Sequence record: PZ179884.1
Strand: one strand, 5' to 3'
From: a phage
DNA length: 44,035 bases
Part shown: one piece after another, positions 494-44,035 of the stretch
How the letters are laid out: each line of letters begins with the position of its first letter
How positions within the stretch are numbered: position 1 is the first letter of the stretch
Program-made: the position numbers and the translations under genes
The notes under the pieces: model-generated
Seen by the model: only the letters and a program-made list of their open reading frames with translations
Told to the model about the DNA's origin: nothing
Databases searched by the model: none

Positions 494-1009
494 AACTCTC
501 GCCGGCATTAACACCATAAATGCCGTGCTTGAAAATGATATTTTGCATCCTCTGGTTTGGTCCTGGAAATCGAAACGGGCAATTTCATTTTTGTATGCCT
601 TAGAAATCTTGTGCGCGTCTGCCAAATAACGCAGAGTGAACCCTATGCTATCAACTGAACCAGGTGTAATGCGCGCCACGCGTCGCCAGTCAGGAAATCT
701 CCCATCTACAACATCAATCGGAAGTGTGCATATAAGCGCACTACTATCGTCATAGAAAGAAACACTACCGTTGTCGTGGTCTACCTCCGCGTAGTTAAAT
801 TTAGAGGGCTCCCTACCTTTGATGTCTATTAGAACTCCCGTTTCGACGTTTGTTTTCACATTGTCGCAGAACAATCTATGCCCATCCGTAGACACTATCA
901 ATCCTTCAGGGTCTATGTAAAAAGCGTTCAAATAGTAGCGCACATCATTTTTCGCCCTGCAGATTTTCGCCCCTACATACGCAGGGAAAGTAATTACTGT
1001 AGTAACCAT
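488..1009 (-). CDS. Truncated beta sliding clamp (DnaN) homolog: domain II plus a shortened C-terminal segment (173 aa)
   Basis: Motifs DVRYYLN, TDGHRL, VDGRFPDWRRV and C-terminal MPARV match E. coli DnaN DVRYYLNG, ATDGHRLA, VDGRFPDYRRV, MPMRL as recalled from memory; RBS GAGGAG 7 nt upstream of ATG. Confidence 0.6.
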   Translation of the reverse strand: MVTTVITFPAYVGAKICRAKNDVRYYLNAFYIDPEGLIVSTDGHRLFCDNVKTNVETGVLIDIKGREPSKFNYAEVDHDNGSVSFYDDSSALICTLPIDVVDGRFPDWRRVARITPGSVDSIGFTLRYLADAHKISKAYKNEIARFDFQDQTRGCKISFSSTAFMVLMPARVK

Positions 1010-1037
1010 TTTTCATCTCCTCGTTTCGATGTAATGA

Positions 1038-1066
1038 ATAGTACCCTATTATGTTGGTGTCTGCAA
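1038..1066 (-). promoter_or_regulatory. Class B promoter (minus strand: TTGCAG -17- TACTAT) driving the DnaN-like gene
   Basis: -35/-10 hexamers with 17-nt spacer; spacer and flank share ATAATAGGGTACTATTCA with four other loci. Confidence 0.55.
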
Positions 1067-1340
1067 ACTATTTATTTACCTATTCCAGTTATTCCACTCA
1101 ATTGTAAATGTTGGAATAAACTATTCGAATAGTTGACTTTTCACTGAAAATATGCTAAGCTCCACCTGAGCTTGTGAAGTATGAACAAGCGACCGCGGCG
1201 CGGGCAGGTAACGGAGCGGGACGTAAGTCCTGAGTGTAGTTACGCTGACGCGTTCGGAAGGGCCATACTCTATTGCTTGTGTAAAAAGTAACTGGTTTAC
1301 TGAGATTACGCCGTTTCTATGTTTAAATGATAAGGACTAG

Positions 1341-1368
1341 CGCCCCGCTTTAAGGCGGGGCTTTACTT
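1341..1368 (+). terminator. Terminator-like hairpin in the leader upstream of the spanin genes
   Basis: Stem GCCCCGC / GCGGGGC, 6-nt loop, followed by TTTACTT; lies just before the RBS of the 1386 gene, so may act as an attenuator. Confidence 0.4.
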
Positions 1369-1385
1369 ATCGAGAAAGGAGAAAC

Positions 1386-1772
1386 ATGAATCTTAAAGCA
1401 ACTGTCGTAGCAGGAGCATGTTTCATCATCCTGGCCTACGCACACGGCATCTACCAGTATCGCAGCGGATGGAACGAAGGCCGGGCGAATCTCGTTTCGC
1501 AGCAACAGCAGAAAGCACAGGCTGAGTTAGCGAAGAAAACACAACGGCAGCAGCAGGACGAATCAAAGGCCGCAGCCGCTGACAACGAAGGCAAGACGAA
1601 ATCAGAGGTGATTAACCGTGAAGTCGTTAAGTACATTAAAACGCCTGGCCGCAGCGTGTACACTTTTGACCCTGAGCGCGTGCAGCTCAAGTCCCGCGCC
1701 GTCGCAAACGCCAATTCCATCCCCGGATACGACGATGATGCAGCCGCCGTGCAAACTGGCGCTGCCAAGTAG
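1386..1772 (+). CDS. Rz-like i-spanin (128 aa)
   Basis: N-terminal TM helix, then Gln/charge-rich predicted coiled coil; a lipoprotein ORF is embedded in the +1 frame. Confidence 0.55.
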   Translation: MNLKATVVAGACFIILAYAHGIYQYRSGWNEGRANLVSQQQQKAQAELAKKTQRQQQDESKAAAADNEGKTKSEVINREVVKYIKTPGRSVYTFDPERVQLKSRAVANANSIPGYDDDAAAVQTGAAK

Positions 1773-1881
1773 CGACGCGGACGAGGATTTAGCTATCGAC
1801 GTTCAGAACGCAGAATGTGTACGGCAACTGAGGCTGAAAGTGTTCATGTTGCAGGATTACGTGAGGAATATTCTGGAATAG
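1618..1881 (+). CDS. Rz1-like o-spanin lipoprotein (87 aa), overlapping and extending beyond the i-spanin gene
   Basis: Lipobox LTLSAC at the end of a signal peptide; proline-rich mature region; +1 frame relative to 1386-1772. Confidence 0.5.
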   Translation: MKSLSTLKRLAAACTLLTLSACSSSPAPSQTPIPSPDTTMMQPPCKLALPSSDADEDLAIDVQNAECVRQLRLKVFMLQDYVRNILE

Positions 1882-1963
1882 TTGCCTTGCATGTTGGAAT
1901 AATTTATTCTTGACATGTAAATCCGGGTGGCCCGGATTCCAACGTCCAGGGGACATACTGACT

Positions 1964-2665
1964 ATGAATCGTTTTTTACGTTATCCGTTCCAGGAAGAAG
2001 CTGGAGCAGAAGATAAAGCTGGTGGCGGTGACGCTCCTAAAATGTTCACCGCTGAAGAAGTTCAGGCGCTGATTGAGAAAGAAGTTGCCGGGCTTAAGGC
2101 TAATCAGGAAGCATTGTTGGCGGAGAAGAAAGAAGCCGCTCGCAAAGCAAAAGAGGCCGAAGAAGAACGGCAGCGCGCGCACCAGGAGGCGTTAAAAGCC
2201 GCTGGTAAGATGGATGAGTTCGAAAAGACGATTCGTAGCCAGTACGACCCTGTGTTAGCCGAGAAAGACGGTCGCATCTCCAGAATGGCAGAGCGTATCC
2301 TCGGCAGCGAACGTAAAGCGGTGCTAGGCTCTTTCGCGGGTGACTTTATTACCCCAGAAGCAGTGGACATTCTTGCGCCGTTCGTTAAGACTGAGTTCGA
2401 AGGCGATGATGTGGTTACTAAGTTTGTTGGTGCAGACGGTAACGTAATCACGACTGACCCGGAACAGTTCCGCAAATACCTGCGCGAACACAAGGCGTTT
2501 TCGCATTTGATCAAAGCAAATGCAGCTTCCGGCGGCGGGGCTTCCGGTAGCAAAGGCGGCGGGGCCGCACCAGCGTTTAAAGACATGAGTGAAGCAGAGC
2601 GTTTAGCCCTGTATAAATCGAACCCTGCCGAATTTGAACGGCAACTTAAAGCCCTGAGGAAATAA
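1964..2665 (+). CDS. Scaffolding protein
   Basis: ATG at 1964 in frame with track ORF 1910-2665 (TTG start); Ala/Glu/Lys-rich helical protein immediately upstream of major capsid gene. Confidence 0.55.
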   Translation: MNRFLRYPFQEEAGAEDKAGGGDAPKMFTAEEVQALIEKEVAGLKANQEALLAEKKEAARKAKEAEEERQRAHQEALKAAGKMDEFEKTIRSQYDPVLAEKDGRISRMAERILGSERKAVLGSFAGDFITPEAVDILAPFVKTEFEGDDVVTKFVGADGNVITTDPEQFRKYLREHKAFSHLIKANAASGGGASGSKGGGAAPAFKDMSEAERLALYKSNPAEFERQLKALRK

Positions 2666-2667
2666 TA

Positions 2668-3717
2668 ATGGCAATTACCACTATCGGCGATATCGTAACT
2701 GGCAACATCCCGGTCCTGGCGTCTTATATGACCGAGGACCCGGTAGAAAAAACCGCGTTCTTCCAGTCTGGTATTCTGACCCCGACCCCGTACGCTGCCG
2801 AGATTGCCCGCGGCCCGTCCAACGTCGCTAATATTCCTTTCTGGAAAGCGATTGATACCTCTATCGAGCCGAACTACTCGAACGACGTATACCAGGACAT
2901 CGCCACCCCGCGTAACGTGCAGACCGGCGAGATGATGGCGCGCGTTGCGTACCTGAACGAAGGTTTCGGTCAGGCGGATTTGACCGTTGAACTGACCAGC
3001 CAGAACCCGCTGCAATCCGTAGCGTCACGTCTGGATAACTTCTGGCAGCGTCAGGCACAACGCCGTCTGATTGCTACCGCGCTCGGGCTGTACAATGACA
3101 ACGTAGCCGCTACCGACGCATACCACGAGCAGAATGACATGGTAATCGACGTGTCTGCTACTCTGGGCTTCGATGCGGGCGCGTTCATCGACGCTACCCA
3201 GACTATGGGCGATGCTCTGATGGGCAACGGCGGTGAAGTGCTGGGGGCTATCGCGATGCATAGCTTCGTTTATGCGCAGGCACGTAAGCAGCAGCTTATC
3301 GACTTCATCCGTGACGCGGACAACAACACCATGTTCGCCACCTACCAGGGCTACCGCGTGATTGTTGACGACAGCATGACCGTAGTCGGCACTGGCCCGA
3401 CCCGTAAGTTCATCTCCATCATCTTCGGCAACGGCGCTATCGGTTACGGTGAAGGTTCTCCGTCCAACCCGCTGGAATACGAGCGCGAAGCGTCCCGCGG
3501 CAACGGCGGCGGCGTTGAAACCCTGTGGACCCGTAAGACCTGGTTGCTACATCCGTTTGGCTACAGCTTCACCAGCGCGGTAATCACCGGCAACGGCACC
3601 GAGACTGTAGCCCGCTCTGCTTCCTGGCAGGACCTGGCGAATGCCTCCAACTGGAACCGTGTTGTCGACCGTAAGCATGTGCCTATTGCCTTCCTGGTAA
3701 CTGGTGTAGGGTCTTAA
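2668..3717 (+). CDS. Major capsid protein (349 aa)
   Basis: ORF track; position after scaffold; size and composition typical of HK97-fold capsid; strong terminator follows. Confidence 0.7.
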   Translation: MAITTIGDIVTGNIPVLASYMTEDPVEKTAFFQSGILTPTPYAAEIARGPSNVANIPFWKAIDTSIEPNYSNDVYQDIATPRNVQTGEMMARVAYLNEGFGQADLTVELTSQNPLQSVASRLDNFWQRQAQRRLIATALGLYNDNVAATDAYHEQNDMVIDVSATLGFDAGAFIDATQTMGDALMGNGGEVLGAIAMHSFVYAQARKQQLIDFIRDADNNTMFATYQGYRVIVDDSMTVVGTGPTRKFISIIFGNGAIGYGEGSPSNPLEYEREASRGNGGGVETLWTRKTWLLHPFGYSFTSAVITGNGTETVARSASWQDLANASNWNRVVDRKHVPIAFLVTGVGS

Positions 3718-3734
3718 GGTTAAGCTATAATCGA

Positions 3735-3761
3735 GAGGGACTTCGGTCCCTCTTTTCATTT
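3735..3761 (+). terminator. Rho-independent terminator after major capsid gene
   Basis: Stem GAGGGAC / GTCCCTC, loop TTCG, followed by TTTTCATTT. Confidence 0.7.
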
Positions 3762-3778
3762 ACTAAGAGGATTCCTAA

Positions 3779-4120
3779 ATGGCAGACGTATTGAAGCGAC
3801 GCATCACCGGCGTCTCCGCTGACGCCCCGGGCGCTAAGATCGACATGGCGACTATTTCACCTGCGTCTTTCTCTTCCGCGCTGGCGGCTACTACCGCAGT
3901 GACCATAGGTGAAACTATGACGCTGACCGTAACGGTAGCCGGCGGTCTGGAGCCATATTCTTATCAGTGGTACAAGAACAATAACGCTATCGCCGGGGCT
4001 ACCGCGGCTACCTATGCTAAAGCGTCAACCACTACCGCCGATTCTGGTACGTATAAAGTGGTTGTTCACGATGTGTATGGTAATATTATCTCCAGCAGCA
4101 CCGTAGCAACTGTGTCTTAA
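3779..4120 (+). CDS. Ig-like domain protein, likely capsid decoration (113 aa)
   Basis: Ig signature SYQWYKNN...GTYKVVVHD, paralogous to the C-terminus of the 1-459 product. Confidence 0.55.
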   Translation: MADVLKRRITGVSADAPGAKIDMATISPASFSSALAATTAVTIGETMTLTVTVAGGLEPYSYQWYKNNNAIAGATAATYAKASTTTADSGTYKVVVHDVYGNIISSSTVATVS

Positions 4121-4339: not shown

Positions 4340-4852
4340 ATGCCGCTAATCGTGGAAACGGGGGCAATCGTCCCGAATGCTGATTCGTACATCTCACTAG
4401 CGGACGCCCGCGCGTTAGCGGCTAATTATGGCCTTGAACTACCGGCAGACGATACCGCTGCAGAGGTGGCCTTGCGCAACGGTGCTACTTATGTCGGGCT
4501 TGCAGAACCGCAGATGTGCGGTCGTCGTGTATCCGCTGAACAGTCTCTGGCGTATCCTCGCACTGGTGTAACATTGAATGGTTTCCCCGTATCGAACAAC
4601 GTTATCCCGAAACAGGTAATTCTTGCGCAAGTAATCGCTGCGGCTACATACGGTGCTGGTACTGAGGTGAGGGCTAACTCTGACGGTCGTTCCGTGCAGA
4701 CAGAGCGCGTAGAGGGCGCGGTGACAGTGACCTACTTCAACAACGGCAGCAGTGGCGCTACAACCGCGATTACCGCTGCGGACGACGCCTTACGCCCGTT
4801 ACTGTGCGGTGGTCTTAACAATGGCTTCTCGTTTAACGTGTACCGGGGCTGA
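4340..4852 (+). CDS. Head-tail joining region structural protein (170 aa)
   Basis: ORF track; operon position between capsid and tail genes. Confidence 0.45.
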   Translation: MPLIVETGAIVPNADSYISLADARALAANYGLELPADDTAAEVALRNGATYVGLAEPQMCGRRVSAEQSLAYPRTGVTLNGFPVSNNVIPKQVILAQVIAAATYGAGTEVRANSDGRSVQTERVEGAVTVTYFNNGSSGATTAITAADDALRPLLCGGLNNGFSFNVYRG

Positions 4853-8064: not shown

Positions 8065-8295
8065 TTACTCATCAATGTTACTCCTGTACTCCCGTAACTT
8101 TTCCAGACTTTCAATTGCTTCCGCTAAGTCGGTTCCGGTGTCCTTGTGTCCACGTAAACCCATGCACAATAGCTTCTTCAATGCGTGCTGTAACGCCGGG
8201 TCGCGGATGTCGAAAGCGCGGAGCACATCATAAACGTCTACTGTCATAGTGCTGCCGTGAGTATTTGTCATTGTGCGGTTGTATTTTGAAGTCAT
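8065..8295 (-). CDS. Hypothetical protein (76 aa), last gene of antisense island
   Basis: ORF track; start overlaps stop of upstream gene. Confidence 0.45.
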   Translation of the reverse strand: MTSKYNRTMTNTHGSTMTVDVYDVLRAFDIRDPALQHALKKLLCMGLRGHKDTGTDLAEAIESLEKLREYRSNIDE

Positions 8296-9422
8296 CCCAG
8301 CATCTCCGGTGAAATAGTTAAACGTGCGACCTCACCATATTCGGCGCTATAAGTAATTACGTTTGCACTACGGCCTGACATCCACCCGCCGCGTGAGGCG
8401 TAGGCATCTTTAGCCGCTAAAGTGCGGTGTTGTTCAACAATCATGTTACGGCTTTCTACAATCTTCTGATGGTGCAGGTGGCCTACGTGGGCGTAGCTGT
8501 AAACACTCTCACCGAACGCTTTGCGGAACTTGGCAATCATAACCGGTTCGATAGCATCGAATCGCGCCTTATGCCCGTGGTGAAAGAACAACGTCGTTTT
8601 TCCGTGTTGCACCATCTTGTAAACATCCGGCGACGTATCGACAATCACTCGGCTGTCGTTCGAATATAAAACTGTGAACATTTCAGCCAGCCATACAGAG
8701 CCTACAGGGTCATGGTTCCCCTGTACGATAAGCAAGCGAACATTTTTATGTTTAACCAGTGCCATATCTACAACACGGCGTACCATACGAATCATGTAGC
8801 GGACGAGTTTCTGGTAGCGAGTGTCTGCGTCCAACACGTGACGCGACTCAGGTGTAACGGCATCCAGACTATCGAAGTGCGCGAAATCACCCAGCAGGTT
8901 AATAACTCCTGTTCCTGCATCCGGTGCTTTCTGAAACGCCGCGTCGAACCAACGAGAGAACAGGTCTTCCGCAATCTTTATATCCCAGTCGTCGCCGCTC
9001 TCGTCGGCCCAGGCAAGCATACCGAGATGGAAATCAGATACCGTGTAAAGATTGAGTAGCTTGTCGTCGCGTTTGGCTCGAGTCGCTTTAGCCGGCGCAA
9101 CTGGCGTAATCTCTGACTTCATGCCTTCAATCACGGCTTTCATCAACTCGACCTGACGTTCAGCGTCGGTGTCTGTCTTAACCCATTGCAACTTAGTATT
9201 GCCGAACTCGTCTACCAGAGACGACGTCCCTTTAATCTTGTAGCCGTCTGGGACAAGGTGGCTAACGTCACGCCCGTGGCCTACACCTTTCTTAGCCAGC
9301 TTCGCTTTACGGATACGAATAACTCGGTCTGAGATGCCGTATTTACGGGCGATGTCTACATTCTTCATCCCGGCGTTCAATTCTTCCTGTAACTGTTCGT
9401 CGGTTATTTTCTTCTGAGCCAT
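8292..9422 (-). CDS. N-terminal HTH domain fused to calcineurin-like metallophosphoesterase (376 aa)
   Basis: HTH-like NVDIARKYGISDRVIRIRK; phosphoesterase motifs SDFHLG, GDFAHFD, GNHD, HHGH, GHLHH in canonical order; RBS GAGGAA. Confidence 0.6.
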   Translation of the reverse strand: MAQKKITDEQLQEELNAGMKNVDIARKYGISDRVIRIRKAKLAKKGVGHGRDVSHLVPDGYKIKGTSSLVDEFGNTKLQWVKTDTDAERQVELMKAVIEGMKSEITPVAPAKATRAKRDDKLLNLYTVSDFHLGMLAWADESGDDWDIKIAEDLFSRWFDAAFQKAPDAGTGVINLLGDFAHFDSLDAVTPESRHVLDADTRYQKLVRYMIRMVRRVVDMALVKHKNVRLLIVQGNHDPVGSVWLAEMFTVLYSNDSRVIVDTSPDVYKMVQHGKTTLFFHHGHKARFDAIEPVMIAKFRKAFGESVYSYAHVGHLHHQKIVESRNMIVEQHRTLAAKDAYASRGGWMSGRSANVITYSAEYGEVARLTISPEMLG

Positions 9423-9487
9423 GCTTACTTCCTCGTGTTTAGGATTTGTCCTATTTAACCACAGTGGATTCCTTTAAATAAAGGCAA

Positions 9488-9814
9488 CTATTTACTTTCT
9501 GCGCCTATCGCCCACCCTGTCATTACCATTTGCAGACGGGTGGCTGTCAGTAGGCTATAGAAAGCATCTCCGTTTTTCTCTACCGAACGTATCACTGTGT
9601 AGGTTACGGCCTGCGGGGGTAGGCCCGATTTACCAACCTCCACGGCGGCCTCACACTCGCGAACTGTAGAGTCCTTGAACGCCTTTACAATAGTAGGGTC
9701 GGCTTTCTCGAGCACACCAGAAGTCATAAGAACAGATTCACTAAATACCTGTTCGCACGGGGCTCCAAAAGTAGCAAAAGACATAAACCCCAGAGCTAAT
9801 ACTAATTTACGCAT
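9488..9814 (-). CDS. Secreted / periplasmic protein (108 aa)
   Basis: N-terminal signal peptide MRKLVLALGFMSFATFGA; RBS GAGGG 8 nt upstream. Confidence 0.5.
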   Translation of the reverse strand: MRKLVLALGFMSFATFGAPCEQVFSESVLMTSGVLEKADPTIVKAFKDSTVRECEAAVEVGKSGLPPQAVTYTVIRSVEKNGDAFYSLLTATRLQMVMTGWAIGAESK

Positions 9815-9842
9815 AATTATACCCTCAGTAAGTTACTGGTGA

Positions 9843-9871
9843 ATAGTACCCTATTATATTGGGGCGCGCAA
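9843..9871 (-). promoter_or_regulatory. Class B promoter (minus strand: TTGCGC -17- TACTAT) driving the antisense island
   Basis: Spacer CCCCAATATAATAGGG is near-identical to the class B promoter at 32856-32884. Confidence 0.55.
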
Positions 9872-29224: not shown

Positions 29225-29253
29225 ACTATAATAGCGAACTATTCACATGTCAA
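29225..29253 (-). promoter_or_regulatory. Class A promoter (minus strand: TTGACA -17- TATAGT)
   Basis: Consensus -35; spacer TGTGAATAGTTCGCTAT. Confidence 0.6.
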
Positions 29254-29257
29254 TGGG

Positions 29258-29286
29258 CTTTTCTAAAATAATTAATATGGTACTAT
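29258..29286 (+). promoter_or_regulatory. Divergent plus-strand promoter-like element with TACTAT -10 and weak -35
   Basis: Shares TACTATTCAC with class B; -35 region overlaps the minus-strand class A -35. Confidence 0.3.
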
Positions 29287-29317
29287 TCACATATCAACTG
29301 ACTAAGGAGTAATTGAC

Positions 29318-31967: not shown

Positions 31968-32258
31968 TTACCGTTTAGCCAACCCTTCCAGCAAATTTTT
32001 ATACTCTTCAAAATATTCCTCGACCAAATCATCGCCGAAATAGAAGTCGATATACTCGAGATTATCTCTTACGTTAAGCGATGCCGACATGGTGCTTAGT
32101 TGGCGTAAGCTAATTAGCTTCATTTCTGTTTCTACGCAGAAAGGCCGGTAGGTATCAAGATGGCAAGAGATATTGAAGCATAAAGCGAACTCTCCGGCCA
32201 CGGAGTGAACCATATACACTTCGTTTTCTGCTTTATTGTGGAAAATTACGCCTTTCAT
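31968..32258 (-). CDS. Hypothetical protein (96 aa)
   Basis: ORF track. Confidence 0.4.
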   Translation of the reverse strand: MKGVIFHNKAENEVYMVHSVAGEFALCFNISCHLDTYRPFCVETEMKLISLRQLSTMSASLNVRDNLEYIDFYFGDDLVEEYFEEYKNLLEGLAKR

Positions 32259-32437
32259 TTCACGTTCTCCTTAATCCATGCTTCGACTTTATTACGGTCA
32301 AATGTTCCCGGTAAACGGCGGCCCATAACCTTAATACAGCAGTCAGGGAATTTGCCGCTGCGCAACCAGTTATTAATGGTCTGACGTGTCACCCCGATAC
32401 GTTCAGCTACTTCATTCTGCGTCATATAATGCGACAT
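32255..32437 (-). CDS. AlpA/Xis-like HTH regulator (61 aa)
   Basis: Start at ATG 32437 with AGGAGA RBS (track ORF runs to 32551); pattern IGVTRQTINNWLRSGKFP...VEAWI. Confidence 0.55.
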   Translation of the reverse strand: MSHYMTQNEVAERIGVTRQTINNWLRSGKFPDCCIKVMGRRLPGTFDRNKVEAWIKENVK

Positions 32438-32468
32438 TTTTATATCTCCTGTTTGTTTGGTGAAACTG

Positions 32469-32497
32469 AGTATAGGATAGCGGGAATGTAAAAGCAA
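32469..32497 (-). promoter_or_regulatory. Leftward early promoter (minus strand: TTGCTT -17- TATACT)
   Basis: Hexamers with 17-nt spacer upstream of the AlpA-like gene. Confidence 0.45.
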
Positions 32498-32534
32498 CCA
32501 ATCTCTGTAATATTTAATCTTTACAAAAATGTTA

Positions 32535-32564
32535 TTGAAAGTTCTTGACACATGTTTGTATAAT
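32535..32564 (+). promoter_or_regulatory. Rightward promoter TTGAAA -18- TATAAT
   Basis: Consensus -10 preceded by TG; AT-rich upstream region. Confidence 0.5.
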
Positions 32565-32591
32565 GGTTTTGGGACTTGTATATATTACGGA

Positions 32592-32623
32592 GTTGACGAA
32601 CCCTCCCCGAGGGATTCGTCAAC
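32592..32623. promoter_or_regulatory. Long imperfect palindrome GTTGACGAACCCTC-CCC-GAGGG-A-TTCGTCAAC
   Basis: 9-bp outer and 5-bp inner inverted repeats in the divergent early control region. Confidence 0.5.
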
Positions 32624-32763
32624 CCCTCCCAGACAGCTGAGATGCTTGCCTTGGGGTTTAAGGATAAGTGTATCTAAATCTCATTTAAAGAAGTAACCCG
32701 CTGAAATATCTACTGTTTCTTAATGTGCCGTAGATTCGCAACCGTAAAAATGTAACGATTATT

Positions 32764-32790
32764 GGGCAGGCTTAAGCCTGCCCTTTAGTT
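32764..32790 (+). terminator. Rho-independent terminator
   Basis: Stem GGGCAGGC / GCCTGCCC, loop TTAA, followed by TTTAGTT. Confidence 0.6.
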
Positions 32791-32855: not shown

Positions 32856-32884
32856 TTGCACACCCCAATATAATAGGATACTAT
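32856..32884 (+). promoter_or_regulatory. Class B promoter (TTGCAC -17- TACTAT) for the early-right operon
   Basis: Spacer ACCCCAATATAATAGGA; downstream TCACTTATCGAAACGAG leader motif. Confidence 0.6.
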
Positions 32885-32918
32885 TCACTTATCGAAACGA
32901 GACAGAGGAGTGGTGGTT

Positions 32919-33878: not shown

Positions 33879-33907
33879 TTGCACACTGGGATAGAATAGG
33901 CTACTAT
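33879..33907 (+). promoter_or_regulatory. Class B promoter (TTGCAC -17- TACTAT)
   Basis: Spacer ACTGGGATAGAATAGGC; downstream TCATTTACACAAACGAG leader motif. Confidence 0.6.
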
Positions 33908-33938
33908 TCATTTACACAAACGAGAGGAGAGACGGAAG

Positions 33939-36047: not shown

Positions 36048-36356
36048 TTGGATAAATTTACTGAAACTGTGACGGGGTGGCTTCTCGCTGCCGCACTAGC
36101 CGGAGGGGTAATCGGACTAAGGCAACATAAGTCCGCTATTTCCGGCCCTATCGACGGCTTATTCTTTATTGTAACCGGCTTCGCTTGCGCCGTATTTGGC
36201 GCGCCTCTTGCCGCTCAATGGTTTGGCATTACCGGGGAACGCGAGATAGCGGGCCTCGGATTCATCATTGCCATTCTCTGGATGCCTATCTATTCCCGCC
36301 TTTCTGGCATCGTATCTGGCGGCGATATTGCCCGCCCAGGAGGACCACATGACTGA
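36048..36356 (+). CDS. Holin (102 aa, about three TM segments)
   Basis: TTG start with GGAGG RBS; three hydrophobic segments; directly upstream of endolysin. Confidence 0.55.
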   Translation: MDKFTETVTGWLLAAALAGGVIGLRQHKSAISGPIDGLFFIVTGFACAVFGAPLAAQWFGITGEREIAGLGFIIAILWMPIYSRLSGIVSGGDIARPGGPHD

Positions 36357-36621
36357 GCTATTCTGGTTTGCCGTAATGCTGGCAATCGGTGGCGCATCGC
36401 TGTTTAATGTATACCACCCCAGTGTTGACGACGGGTTATTTGGTCGGGTGCTCTACATCCTGACTGCTATCGTTTGCGCTGCCGGATGTATTCACCTGTT
36501 ACAGGGCAGCATGTCTCCGACGCTGCCTGAGACATTAATCACATTAGTTGCGCTGCGCCAGATTCGTCAGGCATGGCTGTCATACGGAGGACATAAGCGT
36601 GTCTCGAAACATTTCAGATAA
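36349..36621 (+). CDS. Second holin / antiholin-like membrane protein (90 aa, 2 TM)
   Basis: ATG 36349 with AGGAGG RBS; two hydrophobic helices; in-frame portion of track ORF 36268-36621. Confidence 0.5.
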   Translation: MTELFWFAVMLAIGGASLFNVYHPSVDDGLFGRVLYILTAIVCAAGCIHLLQGSMSPTLPETLITLVALRQIRQAWLSYGGHKRVSKHFR

Positions 36622-37084
36622 TGGGTTGCATTTCACCGCTGCGTTCGAGGGATTCCGAGGTACTGCGTATCGTGCTACGCCGAACGAGAAGTACCTTACT
36701 ATTGGCTACGGAAGCTATGGCCCTCATGTGTATGAAGGGCAGAAGATTACGAAGGGGCAGGGCCTCCTGTTACTGAATCGTGATATGGCTAAGGCCGTAG
36801 CTGCGGTTGACGCAGCAGCACACCATTCATTGACACAGGCACAGTTCGATGCAGTGTGCGACCTGGTATACAACGCAGGTGCTGGTGTGATTGCTGCTAC
36901 TACCGGCACGGGTAAGGCACTGCGTTCTGGTGATATTGCAACGCTGCGGGCTAAGCTGGCGCTGTTCATCAACCAGAACGGCAAACCGTTACTTGGCCTG
37001 CGTCGCCGTACTGCCGGTCGTCTGGCGCTGTTCGACGGTAAGCCGTGGCAAGAGGCGGAGGCTATCGGGAGGGCTGTTAAATGA
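36599..37084 (+). CDS. Endolysin, GH24 lysozyme-like
   Basis: Motif FEGFRGTAYRA...TIGYG; GTG 36599 with GGAGG RBS (track start 36548 is TTG). Confidence 0.65.
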   Translation: MSRNISDNGLHFTAAFEGFRGTAYRATPNEKYLTIGYGSYGPHVYEGQKITKGQGLLLLNRDMAKAVAAVDAAAHHSLTQAQFDAVCDLVYNAGAGVIAATTGTGKALRSGDIATLRAKLALFINQNGKPLLGLRRRTAGRLALFDGKPWQEAEAIGRAVK

Positions 37085-37210: not shown

Positions 37211-37242
37211 AAAACCCGGACCGCAAATCCGGGTTTTATTTT
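37211..37242 (+). terminator. Rho-independent terminator after the lysis cassette
   Basis: Stem CCCGGA / TCCGGG with loop CCGCAAA, followed by TTTTATTTT. Confidence 0.7.
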
Positions 37243-37247
37243 ACCAA

Positions 37248-37276
37248 TTGACACCTAAGACTAATCCGACGATACT
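37248..37276 (+). promoter_or_regulatory. Promoter TTGACA -17- GATACT
   Basis: Consensus -35; 17-nt spacer; -10 matches TATAAT at 4 of 6 positions. Confidence 0.45.
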
Positions 37277-37282
37277 TAAATC

Positions 37283-37347
37283 ACCTCCTGCTCCATCTCT
37301 CTTCTCTCCAGTTTTATCCCGGCCCTGACCCAGCCGGGATTTTTTTT
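37283..37347 (+). ncRNA. Candidate ~65-nt small RNA with CU-rich body and intrinsic terminator
   Basis: No ORF; body ACCTCCTGCTCCATCTCTCTTCTCTCC; contains CACCTCCT identical to the 16S rRNA 3' end motif. Confidence 0.35.
37317..37347 (+). terminator. Strong rho-independent terminator
   Basis: Stem TCCCGGC / GCCGGGA with 9-nt loop, followed by T8. Confidence 0.75.
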
Positions 37348-37369
37348 ATCTATTTTCTGCAATGACTAG

Positions 37370-38846: not shown

Positions 38847-39016
38847 TGTTCAGCGACATCAACGCAGCAATCGAAGAAGCAATCTGGCGCCGTTACAACG
38901 GCGAGCAACAGCGTCACTTCTGCCTGGTGCAACGTGGTAACATGGTCGCCGTGGTGCAGGACCGCGATAACAAATATCCGAATGCGATGTGGACAACGAG
39001 GAATTTCTTAGGATGA
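38846..39016 (+). CDS. Hypothetical protein (56 aa), not in ORF track
   Basis: Translated by hand; ATGA coupling. Confidence 0.3.
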   Translation: MFSDINAAIEEAIWRRYNGEQQRHFCLVQRGNMVAVVQDRDNKYPNAMWTTRNFLG

Positions 39017-39249
39017 TTACCAGCATTCCTAACCTGATTAAAGAATTTGGTACGATGGCGGAGACATGCCGACAAACCGGTATCAACGAAATGACGATTG
39101 CTAAGTACAGTAAAGACGTTGATTGTGAGCGCCACGTAATTTATAACAATCGTCTGATGACGCACGTTAAGACTAGCCCGGTGTTATTCACGCGCCGTGG
39201 TATCACTAAAACTGAGCAACGTATTGCTAAAGAGGAGAGTGGAGAATGA
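39013..39249 (+). CDS. Small HTH-like protein (78 aa)
   Basis: ATG 39013 in frame with track ORF 38989-39249; HTH-like ETCRQTGINEMTIAKYSKD. Confidence 0.4.
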   Translation: MITSIPNLIKEFGTMAETCRQTGINEMTIAKYSKDVDCERHVIYNNRLMTHVKTSPVLFTRRGITKTEQRIAKEESGE

Positions 39250-43908: not shown

Positions 43909-44035
43909 ATGGGCTTTTTCAAAGTAACTGATGTACCGTCACGTCGCGTAGTCCAGTACGCCCGCGTGTCTGGCTCCGGTGAGAACGTGGTATTTATCGA
44001 GGATGAAAGTGTACTCGGCACGCCAGTAGACGATA
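43909..44035 (+). CDS. 5' part of the Ig-like head protein gene (same gene as 1-459; duplicate copy)
   Basis: Identical to 1-127; ATG follows the stop of the head morphogenesis gene. Confidence 0.6.
   Translation, partial: MGFFKVTDVPSRRVVQYARVSGSGENVVFIEDESVLGTPVDD

Follow-up and report, generated by a model that had tools for sequence, protein, structure and literature searches.

Overlapping genes at positions 1386–1881

The DNA analysed here, referred to as the window, is the whole of sequence record PZ179884.1 (44,035 nt). The end of the window repeats its first 127 bases, and therefore the assembly is circular. It comprises 43,908 bp, the complete, circularly assembled genome of a Kagunavirus (Guernseyvirinae), followed by an assembly overlap of 127 bp. 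Two genes of the plus strand occupy positions 1386–1881, and together these very probably specify a two-component spanin, with one gene for each subunit: the i-spanin (1386–1772) and the o-spanin (1618–1881). This identification is based on the ORFs and their signals, on their conservation and the selection acting on each frame, as well as on family membership and gene order.

The i-spanin gene is preceded by the SD sequence AAGGAG (1375–1380) and encodes a protein of 128 residues that matches phrog_2536, 'Rz-like spanin', over its full length (E 1e-53). In Pfam there was no significant match to the Rz families, the sole match being a sub-threshold one to DUF2514. The Kyte-Doolittle profile reaches its 19-residue maximum (1.72) at residues 5–23 and includes no second hydrophobic segment, which is consistent with one N-terminal TMD (residues ~5–23) followed by a predicted periplasmic domain; the positive-inside rule is ambiguous for this protein, with K4 on the N-terminal side of the TMD and R26 and R33 on its C-terminal side. 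The profile and the PHROG match agree with the membrane protein that the earlier note had placed at 1386–1772. An AlphaFold (AF2) model obtained from the single sequence consists of one helix from residue 3 to 84, with pLDDT values of 76–89 over residues 1–60; the mean pLDDT is 63 and the C-terminal third is unreliable. For the Jersey-type i-spanin subfamily, the published prediction is helix, two strands, helix (PMC6139136). Periplasmic Cys residues are absent from the i-spanin.

The o-spanin gene lies in the +1 frame and starts with a GTG codon, 9 nt downstream of the sequence GAGG (1605–1608). Its first 155 nt (1618–1772) are shared with the i-spanin gene, and the remaining 109 nt lie beyond the stop codon of the latter. 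The product, of 87 residues, begins with the sequence MKSLSTLKR-LAAACTLLT-LSAC, in which the lipobox LSAC (codons 1672–1683) follows a signal peptide; the Cys is followed by SS, with a Ser thus at position +2, and the protein also shows a Pro-rich linker as well as Cys45 and Cys67. It matches phrog_1267 (E 8e-20, residues 9–86) and phrog_5672 (E 2e-30, residues 41–87). When all the ORFs of at least 40 aa of the window were inspected, on both strands and with any start codon, using our own rule for lipoprotein signals, 1618–1881 was the only one with a lipoprotein signal. The earlier note had described a +1-frame lipoprotein ORF with the lipobox LTLSAC that extends beyond the i-spanin stop codon, and had asked for a check of this signal; the ORF, its lipobox and the overlapped Rz/Rz1-like architecture were all borne out, both products matching spanin families of PHROGs and the pair being recovered, with signs of selection, from 48 related loci.

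In these 48 IMG/VR loci, Jerseyvirus-type contigs included, the identity of the i-spanin ranges from 62 to 98% (97% for the homologue on a related contig of 41,632 bp). The +1 ORF of the o-spanin, a GGAGG sequence upstream of it and the lipobox Cys are kept in all 48. The start codon is either GTG or ATG and, save for one locus with a replaced N-terminus, occupies the same offset; the lipobox appears as LSAC, LASC, LTSC, LSGC, LNGC or ITGC. The sequence of the signal peptide diverges although the start, the SD and the lipobox are kept, and Cys45 and Cys67 are invariant among the loci listed. For the segment that belongs only to the o-spanin, dN/dS does not exceed ~0.1 in the o frame, as compared with 0.65–3.6 in the two control frames, and thus purifying selection on this tail is strong, in the +1 frame only. 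Within the overlap the o frame shows a dN/dS of ~1, which suggests that the N-terminal 50 residues of the o-spanin are constrained only as signal peptide and linker. The dN/dS of the i-spanin frame is 0.1–0.5, with 0.1–0.3 given for the i-spanin gene, and taken together these values point to protein-level selection in both reading frames.

Several GenBank and RefSeq records, including those of Golestan, ZCEC5 and Bas76, annotate at this place a CDS of 47 aa, and phrog_5672, which is 47 positions long, was built on this form. It could then be argued that the o-spanin is just the 47-aa product initiated at the ATG at 1738, the +1 frame upstream of it being untranslated; however, we find this hardly credible. 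Such a product, with neither signal peptide nor lipobox, could not reach the outer membrane, and the start at 1618, with its SD and lipobox Cys, is conserved over the 48 loci, where GTG and ATG alternate precisely at this codon. Besides, the alignment with phrog_1267 takes in residues 9–86 of the 87-aa form, and only this form fits the numbering of Cys45 and Cys67 used by Kongari et al. (PMC6139136). The ORF described in the earlier note, of 87 aa, is a better o-spanin than the 47-aa CDS of many GenBank records. Wrong starts for 64 o-spanins, and 196 o-spanins without annotation, have been reported in public records (Kongari et al., PMC6139136). The present case extends to many Kagunavirus and Jerseyvirus records, several of them of candidates for therapy, in which the o-spanin appears as a 47-aa fragment that lacks the signal peptide, whereas the gene should be annotated as the 87-aa ORF, beginning with GTG or ATG 120 nt upstream of the annotated start.

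Family, gene context and proposed mode of action

On sequence grounds, the pair belongs to an already known group, the Jersey overlapped family, whose members include Jersey, SETP3, SE2, K1G, K1H and K1ind1-3 (Kongari et al. 2018, BMC Bioinformatics 19:326; PMC6139136). This family was listed with an overlap of 155 bp and with conserved Cys45 and Cys67 (PMC6139136), and the genes of the window agree with it in the +1 frame, the 155-nt overlap, the length of the o-spanin, both Cys residues, the genomic position and an i-spanin predicted to consist of a TMD and a long helix. Nothing of substance differs; the lipobox is LSAC here, versus LASC, LSGC or LNGC in close relatives. The spanins are 90–98% identical to those of Kagunavirus members, the o-spanin being 90.8% identical to that of K1G over all 87 aa, and homologues of the o-spanin occur in 665 phage records, in several of which the genes are annotated as o-spanin and i-spanin. 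Given that a curated spanin catalogue, as well as hundreds of records, already contain the pair, its architecture and its position, the spanins themselves are of little import. In the literature, we found no experimental test of any spanin of the Jersey family; a study of Jerseyvirus lysis tested only the holin and the endolysins (PMC9677904).

The arrangement resembles that of Rz/Rz1 from phage lambda in that a type-II inner-membrane protein and an outer-membrane lipoprotein of the +1 frame are encoded by one stretch of DNA, and in the Pro-rich linker of the o-spanin; the function presumably shared by both systems is the disruption of the outer membrane through membrane fusion once the peptidoglycan has been broken down. 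In contrast with lambda, where Rz1 is wholly embedded in Rz, both subunits contain Cys and the spanins form part of the S-R-Rz cassette, the o-spanin gene of the window passes the i-spanin stop codon, Cys is present in the o-spanin alone and the pair lies 8–9 kb from the holin and endolysin genes. In these last features it is closer to PseT.3/PseT.2 from T4, which likewise have no periplasmic Cys in the i-spanin and two in the o-spanin, and whose genes do not adjoin those of the holin (t) or the endolysin (e), so that unlinked spanin genes were known already; nevertheless, the pair pseT.3/pseT.2 is classed as 'separated' and belongs to an unrelated sequence family, whereas the genes of the window overlap (PMC6139136). 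More distant homologues are present in Dhillonvirus (SSL-2009a, HK578 group), with an identity of 44–50% over the C-terminal half of the o-spanin. There the genes also overlap and occupy the same slot, between the head-morphogenesis and scaffold genes; however, no leader is present there, the head-morphogenesis gene running into the start of the i-spanin gene. Judging from the gene order in hundreds of Guernseyvirinae records and in Dhillonvirus, the head-module slot is common to all of them, and hence the position of the spanins is also something already known.

The remaining lysis genes were identified with PHROGs on the plus strand: a holin at 36048–36356 (phrog_2359, E 3e-31), a second holin at 36349–36621 (phrog_2508, E 5e-33) and an endolysin at ~36599–37084 (phrog_33703 and phrog_7, E 2e-48 and 5e-38), in an order identical to that of Bas76. 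A complete lysis set is therefore present in the genome. On the circle, the start of the i-spanin gene is 8.2 kb from the end of the endolysin gene and 9.2 kb from the start of the holin gene, in good agreement with the distance of about 9 kb given in the earlier note. Terminator-like hairpins at 463–483 and after the endolysin gene set the spanins apart from the holin/endolysin transcription unit, and the spanin genes are the first ones of a run that continues with the scaffold, major capsid and tail genes.

From established spanin biology, a mode of action may be outlined for topology, lipidation, complex formation, membrane fusion and co-transcription. The i-spanin would be a type-II protein of the inner membrane whose periplasmic domain is long and helical. 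The o-spanin would be translated in the +1 frame from its own GTG and SD, exported by means of its signal peptide and lipidated at Cys22, within its lipobox LSAC; since residue +2 is Ser and not Asp, it should be sorted to the outer membrane. By analogy with Rz/Rz1 from lambda and PseT.3/PseT.2 from T4, the C-termini of both proteins would bind across the periplasm. As the i-spanin lacks periplasmic Cys residues, the complexes are probably made covalent, following the T4-type pattern, by intermolecular disulfides of the o-spanin, for which Cys45 and Cys67 are available. These complexes would be caught in the peptidoglycan mesh until it is destroyed by the holin and the endolysin, and once freed would fuse the inner and outer membranes to complete lysis. 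Because the spanin genes come first in the spanin-scaffold-capsid-tail run, their products are most likely made together with the virion proteins and not with the holin and endolysin. The timing of lysis is set by the holin, and for this reason such expression would carry no mechanistic cost.

The leader upstream of the spanin genes

The spanin genes are preceded by a non-coding stretch of 376 nt (1010–1385). The long structured leader reported by the earlier note is real, and it contains a structure supported by covariation. At its 5' side, an array of TATTCC / GGAATAA half-sites (TATTCCAGTTATTCCA ... TGGAATAAACTATTCGAATAG, 1080–1131) lies directly 5' of a promoter-like -35 element. The sequence TGGAATAA occurs four times in the window versus 1.16 expected, three of the four copies being located between 1089 and 1902. 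The array is conserved in Jerseyvirus and in phiEap-2, and may be an operator for some phage regulator; HTH proteins of the phage, for example the products of 32255–32551 (minus strand) and 38989–39249, are candidates to bind there. The promoter-like site that follows on the plus strand (1133–1161) is formed by TTGACT (1133–1138), a spacer of 17 nt, TG (1153–1154) and TAAGCT (1156–1161); it was absent from the consensus scan because only three of the six positions of its -10 hexamer match. It would be of the extended -10 form, with a start predicted at ~1167–1169. This site is conserved across Kagunavirus and Jerseyvirus, and relatives have re-used it with a second copy of the RNA.

The predicted transcript begins with a structured RNA (1170–1267, plus strand) composed of a 5'-terminal hairpin (1170–1190) and an irregular hairpin of ~75 nt (1192–1264), which consists of three stacked helices, P1–P3. 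P1 has a conserved tandem G.U, and the internal loop GGAG / GAGUGUAG as well as the tail CGGAAGGGCC are likewise conserved. The covariance model (CM) R1 scores 105.8 bits at this place and detects a single copy in the window. Over a set of 26 different sequences, pairing holds in 94.5% of the cells, and both partners vary in 10 of the 22 pairs; covariation scores 0.36 here versus 0.12 in shuffles (none of 500 reached 0.36), and at most 0.07 when the partners were slid. Rfam 15 gave no match at gathering thresholds in the whole window, and an E-value search over 1000–2000 gave, at best, unrelated families with E values of 1.3–9.9. The ~75-nt hairpin is thus a real, covariation-supported RNA without an Rfam family. 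The conserved G.U pairs fit only an RNA of the plus strand, and for this reason a structure of the minus strand or a DNA cruciform is disfavoured. An ORF of 36 aa (1181–1291) that overlaps this RNA is frameshifted or startless in six Kagunavirus variants and absent from Jerseyvirus, so that the short 'hypothetical protein' called inside the leader by some records is probably not a gene.

In the searches made, this RNA was confined to Guernseyvirinae, including the divergent phiEap-2. IMG/VR was first searched with a leader-core pattern of 17 bases, but most of what it picked up was chance similarity in unrelated contigs, the CM accepting just 13 of 80, and a pattern of 24 bases took its place. 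In ~9 related genomes, about a fifth, a second copy of the promoter and the leader RNA precedes the early-right operon, in which the holin and endolysin genes are located. The GTDB genomes gave one match, on a 738-bp scaffold of a Taishania assembly; this scaffold contains the end of a Hoc-like gene, the leader and the start of the i-spanin gene and, being Jerseyvirus-type sequence, is probably a contaminant and not a bacterial homologue.

The leader ends with an extended hairpin (1329–1371, plus strand; -22.3 kcal/mol, z -4.1) whose base is 15 nt 5' of the i-spanin start codon. Its upper stem (1342–1361) forms a G+C-rich, terminator-like hairpin of 8 bp, seven of them G-C, followed by TTTACTTATC. 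In the lower stem GAUAAG pairs with CUUAUC, which places the supposed U tract within a helix, and in this way the bases of the putative terminator tail CUUUACUUAUC are taken up by an extended hairpin of 17–18 bp. The lower stem covaries (GAUAAG/CUUAUC in Kagunavirus versus UAUACG/CGUAUA in Jerseyvirus) and in locus L030 the hairpin is a perfect stem of 18 bp. On the 3' side, the tail is UUUACUUAU in Kagunavirus, where the U tract is weak, and UUAGCGUAU in Jerseyvirus, where it is poor; phiEap-2 has none. Hence, of the terminator-like hairpin proposed by the earlier note, the G+C-rich stem stands, but its identity as a terminator is doubtful.

The only separator of the spanins from the scaffold gene is the intergenic region 1873–1963 (plus strand), which comprises GGAATAG, the palindrome GAATAATTTATTC, TTGACA and a hairpin (AATCCGGG-TGG-CCCGGATT, 1920–1938) without a U tract; the SD and the ATG of the scaffold gene (1964) come next. 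The region is conserved between genera, and the stem of its hairpin covaries (AAUCCGGG versus ACACCGGG), but TTGACA is not conserved in Jerseyvirus.

Possible functions of the leader

In the light of the above, the leader RNA is the sole fresh lead of this analysis, i.e., a structured RNA that opens the late gene run in many coliphages and Salmonella phages. It could be a cis-acting element of the late operon, a reading that has in our opinion an even chance of being correct. In one version of it, the nascent RNA, or a phage factor acting on the GGAATA sites or on the RNA, would bring about read-through of the pre-RBS hairpin and of the terminators at 3733 and 8040, as in lambda pR'-6S-tR'/Q or HK022 put; in the other, the two long irregular hairpins would be RNase III-type signals for processing or stability, like the R sites of T7. 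It has also been suggested, in the earlier note, that the leader and its terminator-like hairpin regulate the last step of lysis separately; they would then form a dedicated attenuator of the spanins, which we regard as improbable. Another reading, somewhat unlikely though less so than the attenuator, is that the leader constitutes an independent small RNA gene that acts in trans, the spanins being expressed by leak-through or from elsewhere. The order of the elements, i.e., a promoter, a leader of ~200 nt, a hairpin, the lysis gene(s) and the head and tail genes, agrees with a cis-acting element, and the promoter-like site, the structured leader and a stable G+C hairpin directly 5' of the i-spanin RBS would also suit an attenuator, as would the location of the spanins and the holin/endolysin in different transcription units with terminator-like hairpins between them. 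However, since no terminator separates the spanins from the scaffold and capsid genes, any effect of the leader applies to the whole spanin-head-tail run that it heads, and the claim of a separate regulation is not supported. The deficiencies of the U tract, paired as it is in the extended stem, count against an attenuator too, and its 3' tail, which is neither a good U tract nor Hfq-like, against a small RNA gene. For the latter, other promoter-RNA-terminator-like modules of the window (32535–32783 and 37248–37350) provide a parallel; nevertheless, no target is known, and the 15 nt from the hairpin base to the i-spanin start codon are too short for another promoter, so that the spanins would need read-through from the leader promoter.

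The duplication of the promoter and the RNA ahead of the early-right operon bears on each of these readings. It implies that they are not specific to the spanins, as an attenuator would require; at the same time, a self-contained module that has been copied as a whole to another intergenic slot is in line with a small RNA gene, and second copies with the same orientation ahead of an operon recall putL/putR of HK022 (PMC9378689) and speak for a cis-acting element. On the other hand, in the loci with a second copy an early promoter follows the module, and read-through would therefore not be needed there. The cis-acting element is further favoured by an RNA structure kept by covariation, the overlapping ORF not being kept, by G.U pairs that fit only RNA of the plus strand, and by strong terminators inside the late run, after which no consensus promoters were listed. 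Against it, a scan of ten small proteins with PHROGs for a Q-like antiterminator recognised none, returning only families of 'unknown function' and one Xis/HTH-like protein, and no conserved alternative pairing of the core with the hairpin was found: neither an antiterminator pairing between them nor a GCGGCG/CGCCGU pairing showed compensating changes by eye. As regards the attenuator, Dhillonvirus SSL-2009a has homologous spanins in the same slot, directly after the head-morphogenesis gene, and the CM found no copy of the leader core there and nothing above 10 bits; besides, unlinked spanin genes have the precedent of T4 mentioned above.

A narrower proposal within the cis-acting reading is that the RNA at 1192–1264 is a new antitermination element, put-like or Q-loading, which we consider distinctly unlikely, albeit a little less so than the attenuator. 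The likeness to lambda pR'-6S RNA-tR' and to HK022 put resides in a promoter-proximal RNA of 70–200 nt, a hairpin and a long late operon that starts with lysis gene(s) and, in the case of put, in the presence of two copies in some genomes, each ahead of an operon (PMC9378689). However, put is made of two stem-loops of ~70 nt, whereas the leader folds into one 5' hairpin and one long hairpin of three helices; CM R1 reached at most 3.7 bits over 27.6–30.1 kb of HK022, which includes the PL/PR region, with no sequence or structure similarity to putL/putR; and, unlike in those leaders, no antiterminator protein is recognised here and the quality of the terminator is doubtful. No account of the control of late transcription in Guernseyvirinae was found in the literature, and a time-course transcriptome of a Kagunavirus (PMC12645636), in which the spanin and holin genes are unnamed, yielded no data on transcript boundaries. 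If the proposal were true, an antitermination RNA would license the host RNA polymerase to proceed past the pre-RBS hairpin and the internal terminators, and would thus time the expression of the spanin and virion genes and, in the genomes with two copies, of all the lysis genes.

The overlapped spanin pair and its family

The ORF at 1386-1772 (+) encodes an i-spanin of 128 residues with a single hydrophobic segment at residues 5-23 (Kyte-Doolittle 19-residue maximum 1.72), and an AlphaFold model obtained from the single sequence has a long helix from residue 3 to 84. The o-spanin ORF (1618-1881, +) lies in the +1 frame, starts with a GTG preceded 9 nt upstream by GAGG, and encodes 87 residues; its first 155 nt lie within the first gene and its last 109 nt beyond the stop codon of that gene. 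This protein has at its N-terminus an outer-membrane lipoprotein signal, made up of three basic residues, a hydrophobic core of 10 residues and the lipobox L-S-A-C with Ser-Ser after it; no other was detected in the genome when all ORFs of at least 40 residues were scanned on both strands with any start codon. A Pro-rich stretch follows the lipobox, and then Cys45 and Cys67. Both proteins match families of Rz-like spanins, the first phrog_2536 (E 1e-53) and the second phrog_1267 (residues 9-86, E 8e-20). The earlier note, which described an overlapped Rz/Rz1-type pair far from the holin and endolysin genes, was thus right on identity and architecture, and ORF and lipobox scans agree with its description; measured around the 43,908-bp circle, 8.2 kb separate the start of the i-spanin gene from the end of the endolysin gene and 9.2 kb separate it from the start of the first holin gene. 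Homology and the defining sequence features allow a spanin function to be assigned with high confidence.

The reality of the +1 ORF is supported by its conservation in 48 related IMG/VR loci, whose i-spanins are 62-98% identical. The frame is open in all 48, with a GTG or ATG start codon, depending on the locus, at a constant offset except in one locus with a replaced N-terminus, and with GGAGG upstream. Every related locus has a lipobox of varying sequence (LSAC, LASC, LTSC, LSGC or LNGC, and ITGC in one locus with nearly separated genes and a replaced N-terminus), while the two downstream cysteines are invariant. Pairwise Nei-Gojobori counts between the window and seven relatives gave, for the segment past the i-spanin stop read in the o frame, a saturated pS of about 0.78 and a pN of about 0.09 in the Jerseyvirus-type comparisons, i.e., a dN/dS of at most 0.1, against 0.65-3.6 in the two other frames. 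Within the overlap, dN/dS was 0.2-0.5 in the i frame and about 1 in the o frame, which fits an overlapped o-spanin part that consists of no more than the signal peptide and a flexible linker. In Golestan (GenBank and RefSeq), ZCEC5, Bas76 and others, the o-spanin is annotated as a CDS of 144 nt (47 residues) from an internal ATG equivalent to 1738, and PHROG 5672 is built on this form; this 1738-1881 version lacks the signal peptide and the lipobox, so that the longer coordinates previously proposed are the right ones.

The pair is nevertheless already known. The "Jersey" family of overlapped spanins was defined by Kongari et al. 2018 (PMC6139136), and its members include Jersey, SETP3 and SE2 as well as K1G, K1H and K1ind1-3, the founding Kagunavirus phages. 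In this family the genes overlap by 155 bp and Cys45 and Cys67 of the o-spanin are constant (PMC6139136), values exactly equal to those of the window. The commonest cysteine pattern in the same study is none in the i-spanin and two in the o-spanin; T4 is noted to have its spanin genes away from t and e, and the FSL_SP-031 variant to have an exchanged signal sequence and an overlap of 8 bp (PMC6139136). One of the fetched loci (IMGVR_UViG_3300045988_013393, 3001-3600) is such a "separated" FSL_SP-031-type variant, with an i-spanin of 118 residues, an unrelated o-spanin signal sequence (MTMNKLFLSAVIIGITGC), and an o-spanin start merely 8-14 nt upstream of the i-spanin stop. Likewise, the genome papers of Golestan, fBC-Eco01 and SeF1 place the spanins among the head genes with the holins and endolysin far off, and 665 phage records contain a homologue of the o-spanin. 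No experimental test of Jersey-family spanins was found in the literature.

Gene order around the pair

Since bases 43909-44035 repeat bases 1-127 exactly (127 bases), the window is a circular assembly with a true genome length of 43,908 bp. On the plus strand, the early small genes come first, from about 32,900, followed by two holins and the endolysin (36,048-37,084), and downstream of these by small genes, terminase, portal, head-morphogenesis and Hoc-like genes up to 459. The Hoc-like gene, with its apparent start at base 1, is the next after the head-morphogenesis gene, with 2 nt between stop codon and ATG; a terminator (463-483) follows its end. After the spanin ORFs come the scaffold (1964-2665, +) and major capsid (2668-3717, +) genes, and then the tail genes. 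Bases 1000-4000 matched 485 phage records, headed by Escherichia phages of the genus Kagunavirus (Guernseyvirinae), with DUEC01 (97.5%) and Golestan (96.4%) at the top; the annotated relative Bas76 has an identical gene order.

Between the Hoc-like gene and the leader, a minus-strand gene (488-1009) matches phrog_3007 ("RusA-like Holliday junction resolvase", E 1e-36), while its sliding-clamp-like matches are weak. The position is variable and moron-like, with an early-type promoter of its own: relatives hold other small genes there, or none. In Dhillonvirus phages, as seen in SSL-2009a (NC_012223.2, 4625-5066), a homologous overlapped pair occupies the same head-module slot, directly downstream of the head-morphogenesis gene and fused to its end. 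A covariance model of the leader core found no copy in SSL-2009a; hence either the position of the spanins predates the leader or the leader has been lost.

A structured leader RNA

The least-explored part of the locus is the leader, a non-coding stretch of 376 nt between the 488-1009 gene and the spanin ORFs, and the residual interest of the locus lies in this uncharacterised RNA. A promoter-like site at 1133-1161 (+; TTGACT, 17 nt, TG-n-TAAGCT) is common to Kagunavirus and Jerseyvirus; it was unlisted by a consensus scan because its -10 hexamer matches the consensus at three of six positions. Just upstream of it is an array of TATTCC/GGAATAA half-sites (1080-1131); half-sites and palindromes (GAATAAACTATTC, GAATAATTTATTC) are present both here and at 1873-1909, between the o-spanin and scaffold genes. 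These sites are kept in Jerseyvirus and in the divergent Guernseyvirinae phage phiEap-2, and are candidate operators for a late-gene regulator.

The predicted transcript starts with a small hairpin (1170-1190, +), followed by an irregular hairpin of about 75 nt (1192-1264, +) with three stacked helices, P1-P3. A covariance model of this core, built from ten Kagunavirus variants with a structure derived by hand, detected one copy in the window (105.8 bits) and also recovered the Jerseyvirus (31-35 bits) and phiEap-2 (24.7 bits) versions. Among 26 distinct sequences, in an alignment that was fitted to the model and therefore favours the structure, 94.5% of the cells are paired, both sides change in 10 of the 22 pairs, and the covariation score of 0.36 compares with 0.12 in shuffles, none of 500 of which reached it, and with at most 0.07 for slid partners; compensatory changes are visible too in plain MAFFT alignments. 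One P1 pair is C-G, U-A or A-U, and P2 and P3 are wholly different between genera. The structure belongs to the plus-strand RNA, as indicated by conserved G.U pairs. The long structured leader noted previously is therefore real. An ORF of 36 residues within it (1181-1291, +), a "hypothetical protein" in several relatives (e.g., Bas76_0007), is probably not a gene: six Kagunavirus variants have it frameshifted or without its start codon, Jerseyvirus lacks it, and it overlaps the covarying helices.

No Rfam match was obtained for the leader RNA, and in IMG/VR a 24-base core pattern was found in Guernseyvirinae contigs only. Its sole match in 185,579 bacterial and archaeal genomes was a 738-bp scaffold (NZ_JACVEL010000048.1) of the Taishania pollutisoli assembly, which is Jerseyvirus-type, with a Hoc-like gene end, the leader and an i-spanin start, and probably represents phage DNA contaminating the genome assembly of a member of the Bacteroidota. 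About nine related genomes (fetched loci L130, at 4673-4754 (-), L127, L060, L151, L183, L186, L196, L200 and L176) carry a second core copy, which scores about 73 bits and again follows the TTGACT-17-TGnTAAGCT promoter. This copy precedes the late one by 11.6 kb, points the same way, and occupies the interval that separates an Xis/HTH-like gene from the early promoter, ahead of the early-right operon; it differs in P3 (GUGCC/GGCAC) and by an A-U pair in P1.

The earlier note also proposed a terminator-like hairpin before the spanin genes and, from it, a separate regulation of the last lysis step. The hairpin (1342-1361) is indeed stable and covaries; its reading as a terminator is doubtful. 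The putative U tract CUUUACUUAUC pairs with GAUAAG...UAG in a longer stem of 17-18 bp (1329-1371; -22.3 kcal/mol, z -4.1), whose lower part covaries (GAUAAG/CUUAUC in Kagunavirus versus UAUACG/CGUAUA in Jerseyvirus) and which in one variant is a perfect 18-bp stem. In Jerseyvirus the hairpin is followed by the tail UUAGCGUAU, and in phiEap-2 it lacks a U tract. With the U tract paired and poorly kept, what is conserved is a long hairpin that stops 15 nt short of the i-spanin start codon, and not necessarily an efficient intrinsic terminator.

The gap between this hairpin and the ribosome-binding site is too short for another promoter, and no terminator was found between the spanin and scaffold genes, the strong ones of the run being at 3733 and 8040; the leader would thus act on the whole spanin-head-tail run, which leaves separate regulation of the spanins unsupported and a spanin-specific attenuator as the least likely reading, an improbable one. 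A cis role for the late operon is favoured, with about an even chance of being correct. It could consist of read-through control, by analogy with lambda pR'-6S-tR' and Q or with HK022 put, or alternatively of RNase III-type processing or stabilisation. The likeness to put is one of layout only, since the covariance model finds nothing in the HK022 PL/PR region (27.6-30.1 kb), and no Q-like protein was recognised in a PHROG scan of ten small proteins. That the leader is instead a stand-alone small RNA is less likely than the cis role, and somewhat doubtful.

Other promoter and RNA modules

A repeat of about 30 bp, TTGCA(G/C)ACACCAA(C/T)ATAATAGGGTACTATTCA, i.e., TTGCAG-17-TACTAT, occurs at 1035-1066 (-), 9840-9871 (-), 32856-32887 (+), 33895-33912 and 29228-29289, and precedes the minus-strand insert gene, the minus-strand block 8292-9814 and the early-right genes. 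In the fBC-Eco01 paper this motif appears among the predictions as "phage RNA polymerase promoters" (PMC9825357). The annotation of the related genome Bas76 includes no phage RNA polymerase, and the repeat is probably the early sigma-70 promoter family of the phage.

The slot of the relatives' second leader copy is occupied in the window by a different promoter-RNA-terminator module (32535-32783, +). Its strong promoter-like site, TTGAAA-18-TATAAT, has 11 of 12 matches, and the module also includes the long hairpin GUUGACGAACCCUC...GAGGGAUUCGUCAAC and, at 32764-32783, a terminator-like one; it has no Rfam match and may be another small RNA. Downstream of the endolysin gene, 37213-37350 (+) has a terminator-like hairpin followed by TTGACA-17-GATACT (37248-37276). 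About 65 nt of CU-rich sequence come next, beginning with CACCUCCU, which is complementary to the Shine-Dalgarno sequence, and the stretch ends in a hairpin CCCGGC...GCCGGG and eight T; it looks like a short sRNA gene of the anti-Shine-Dalgarno type.
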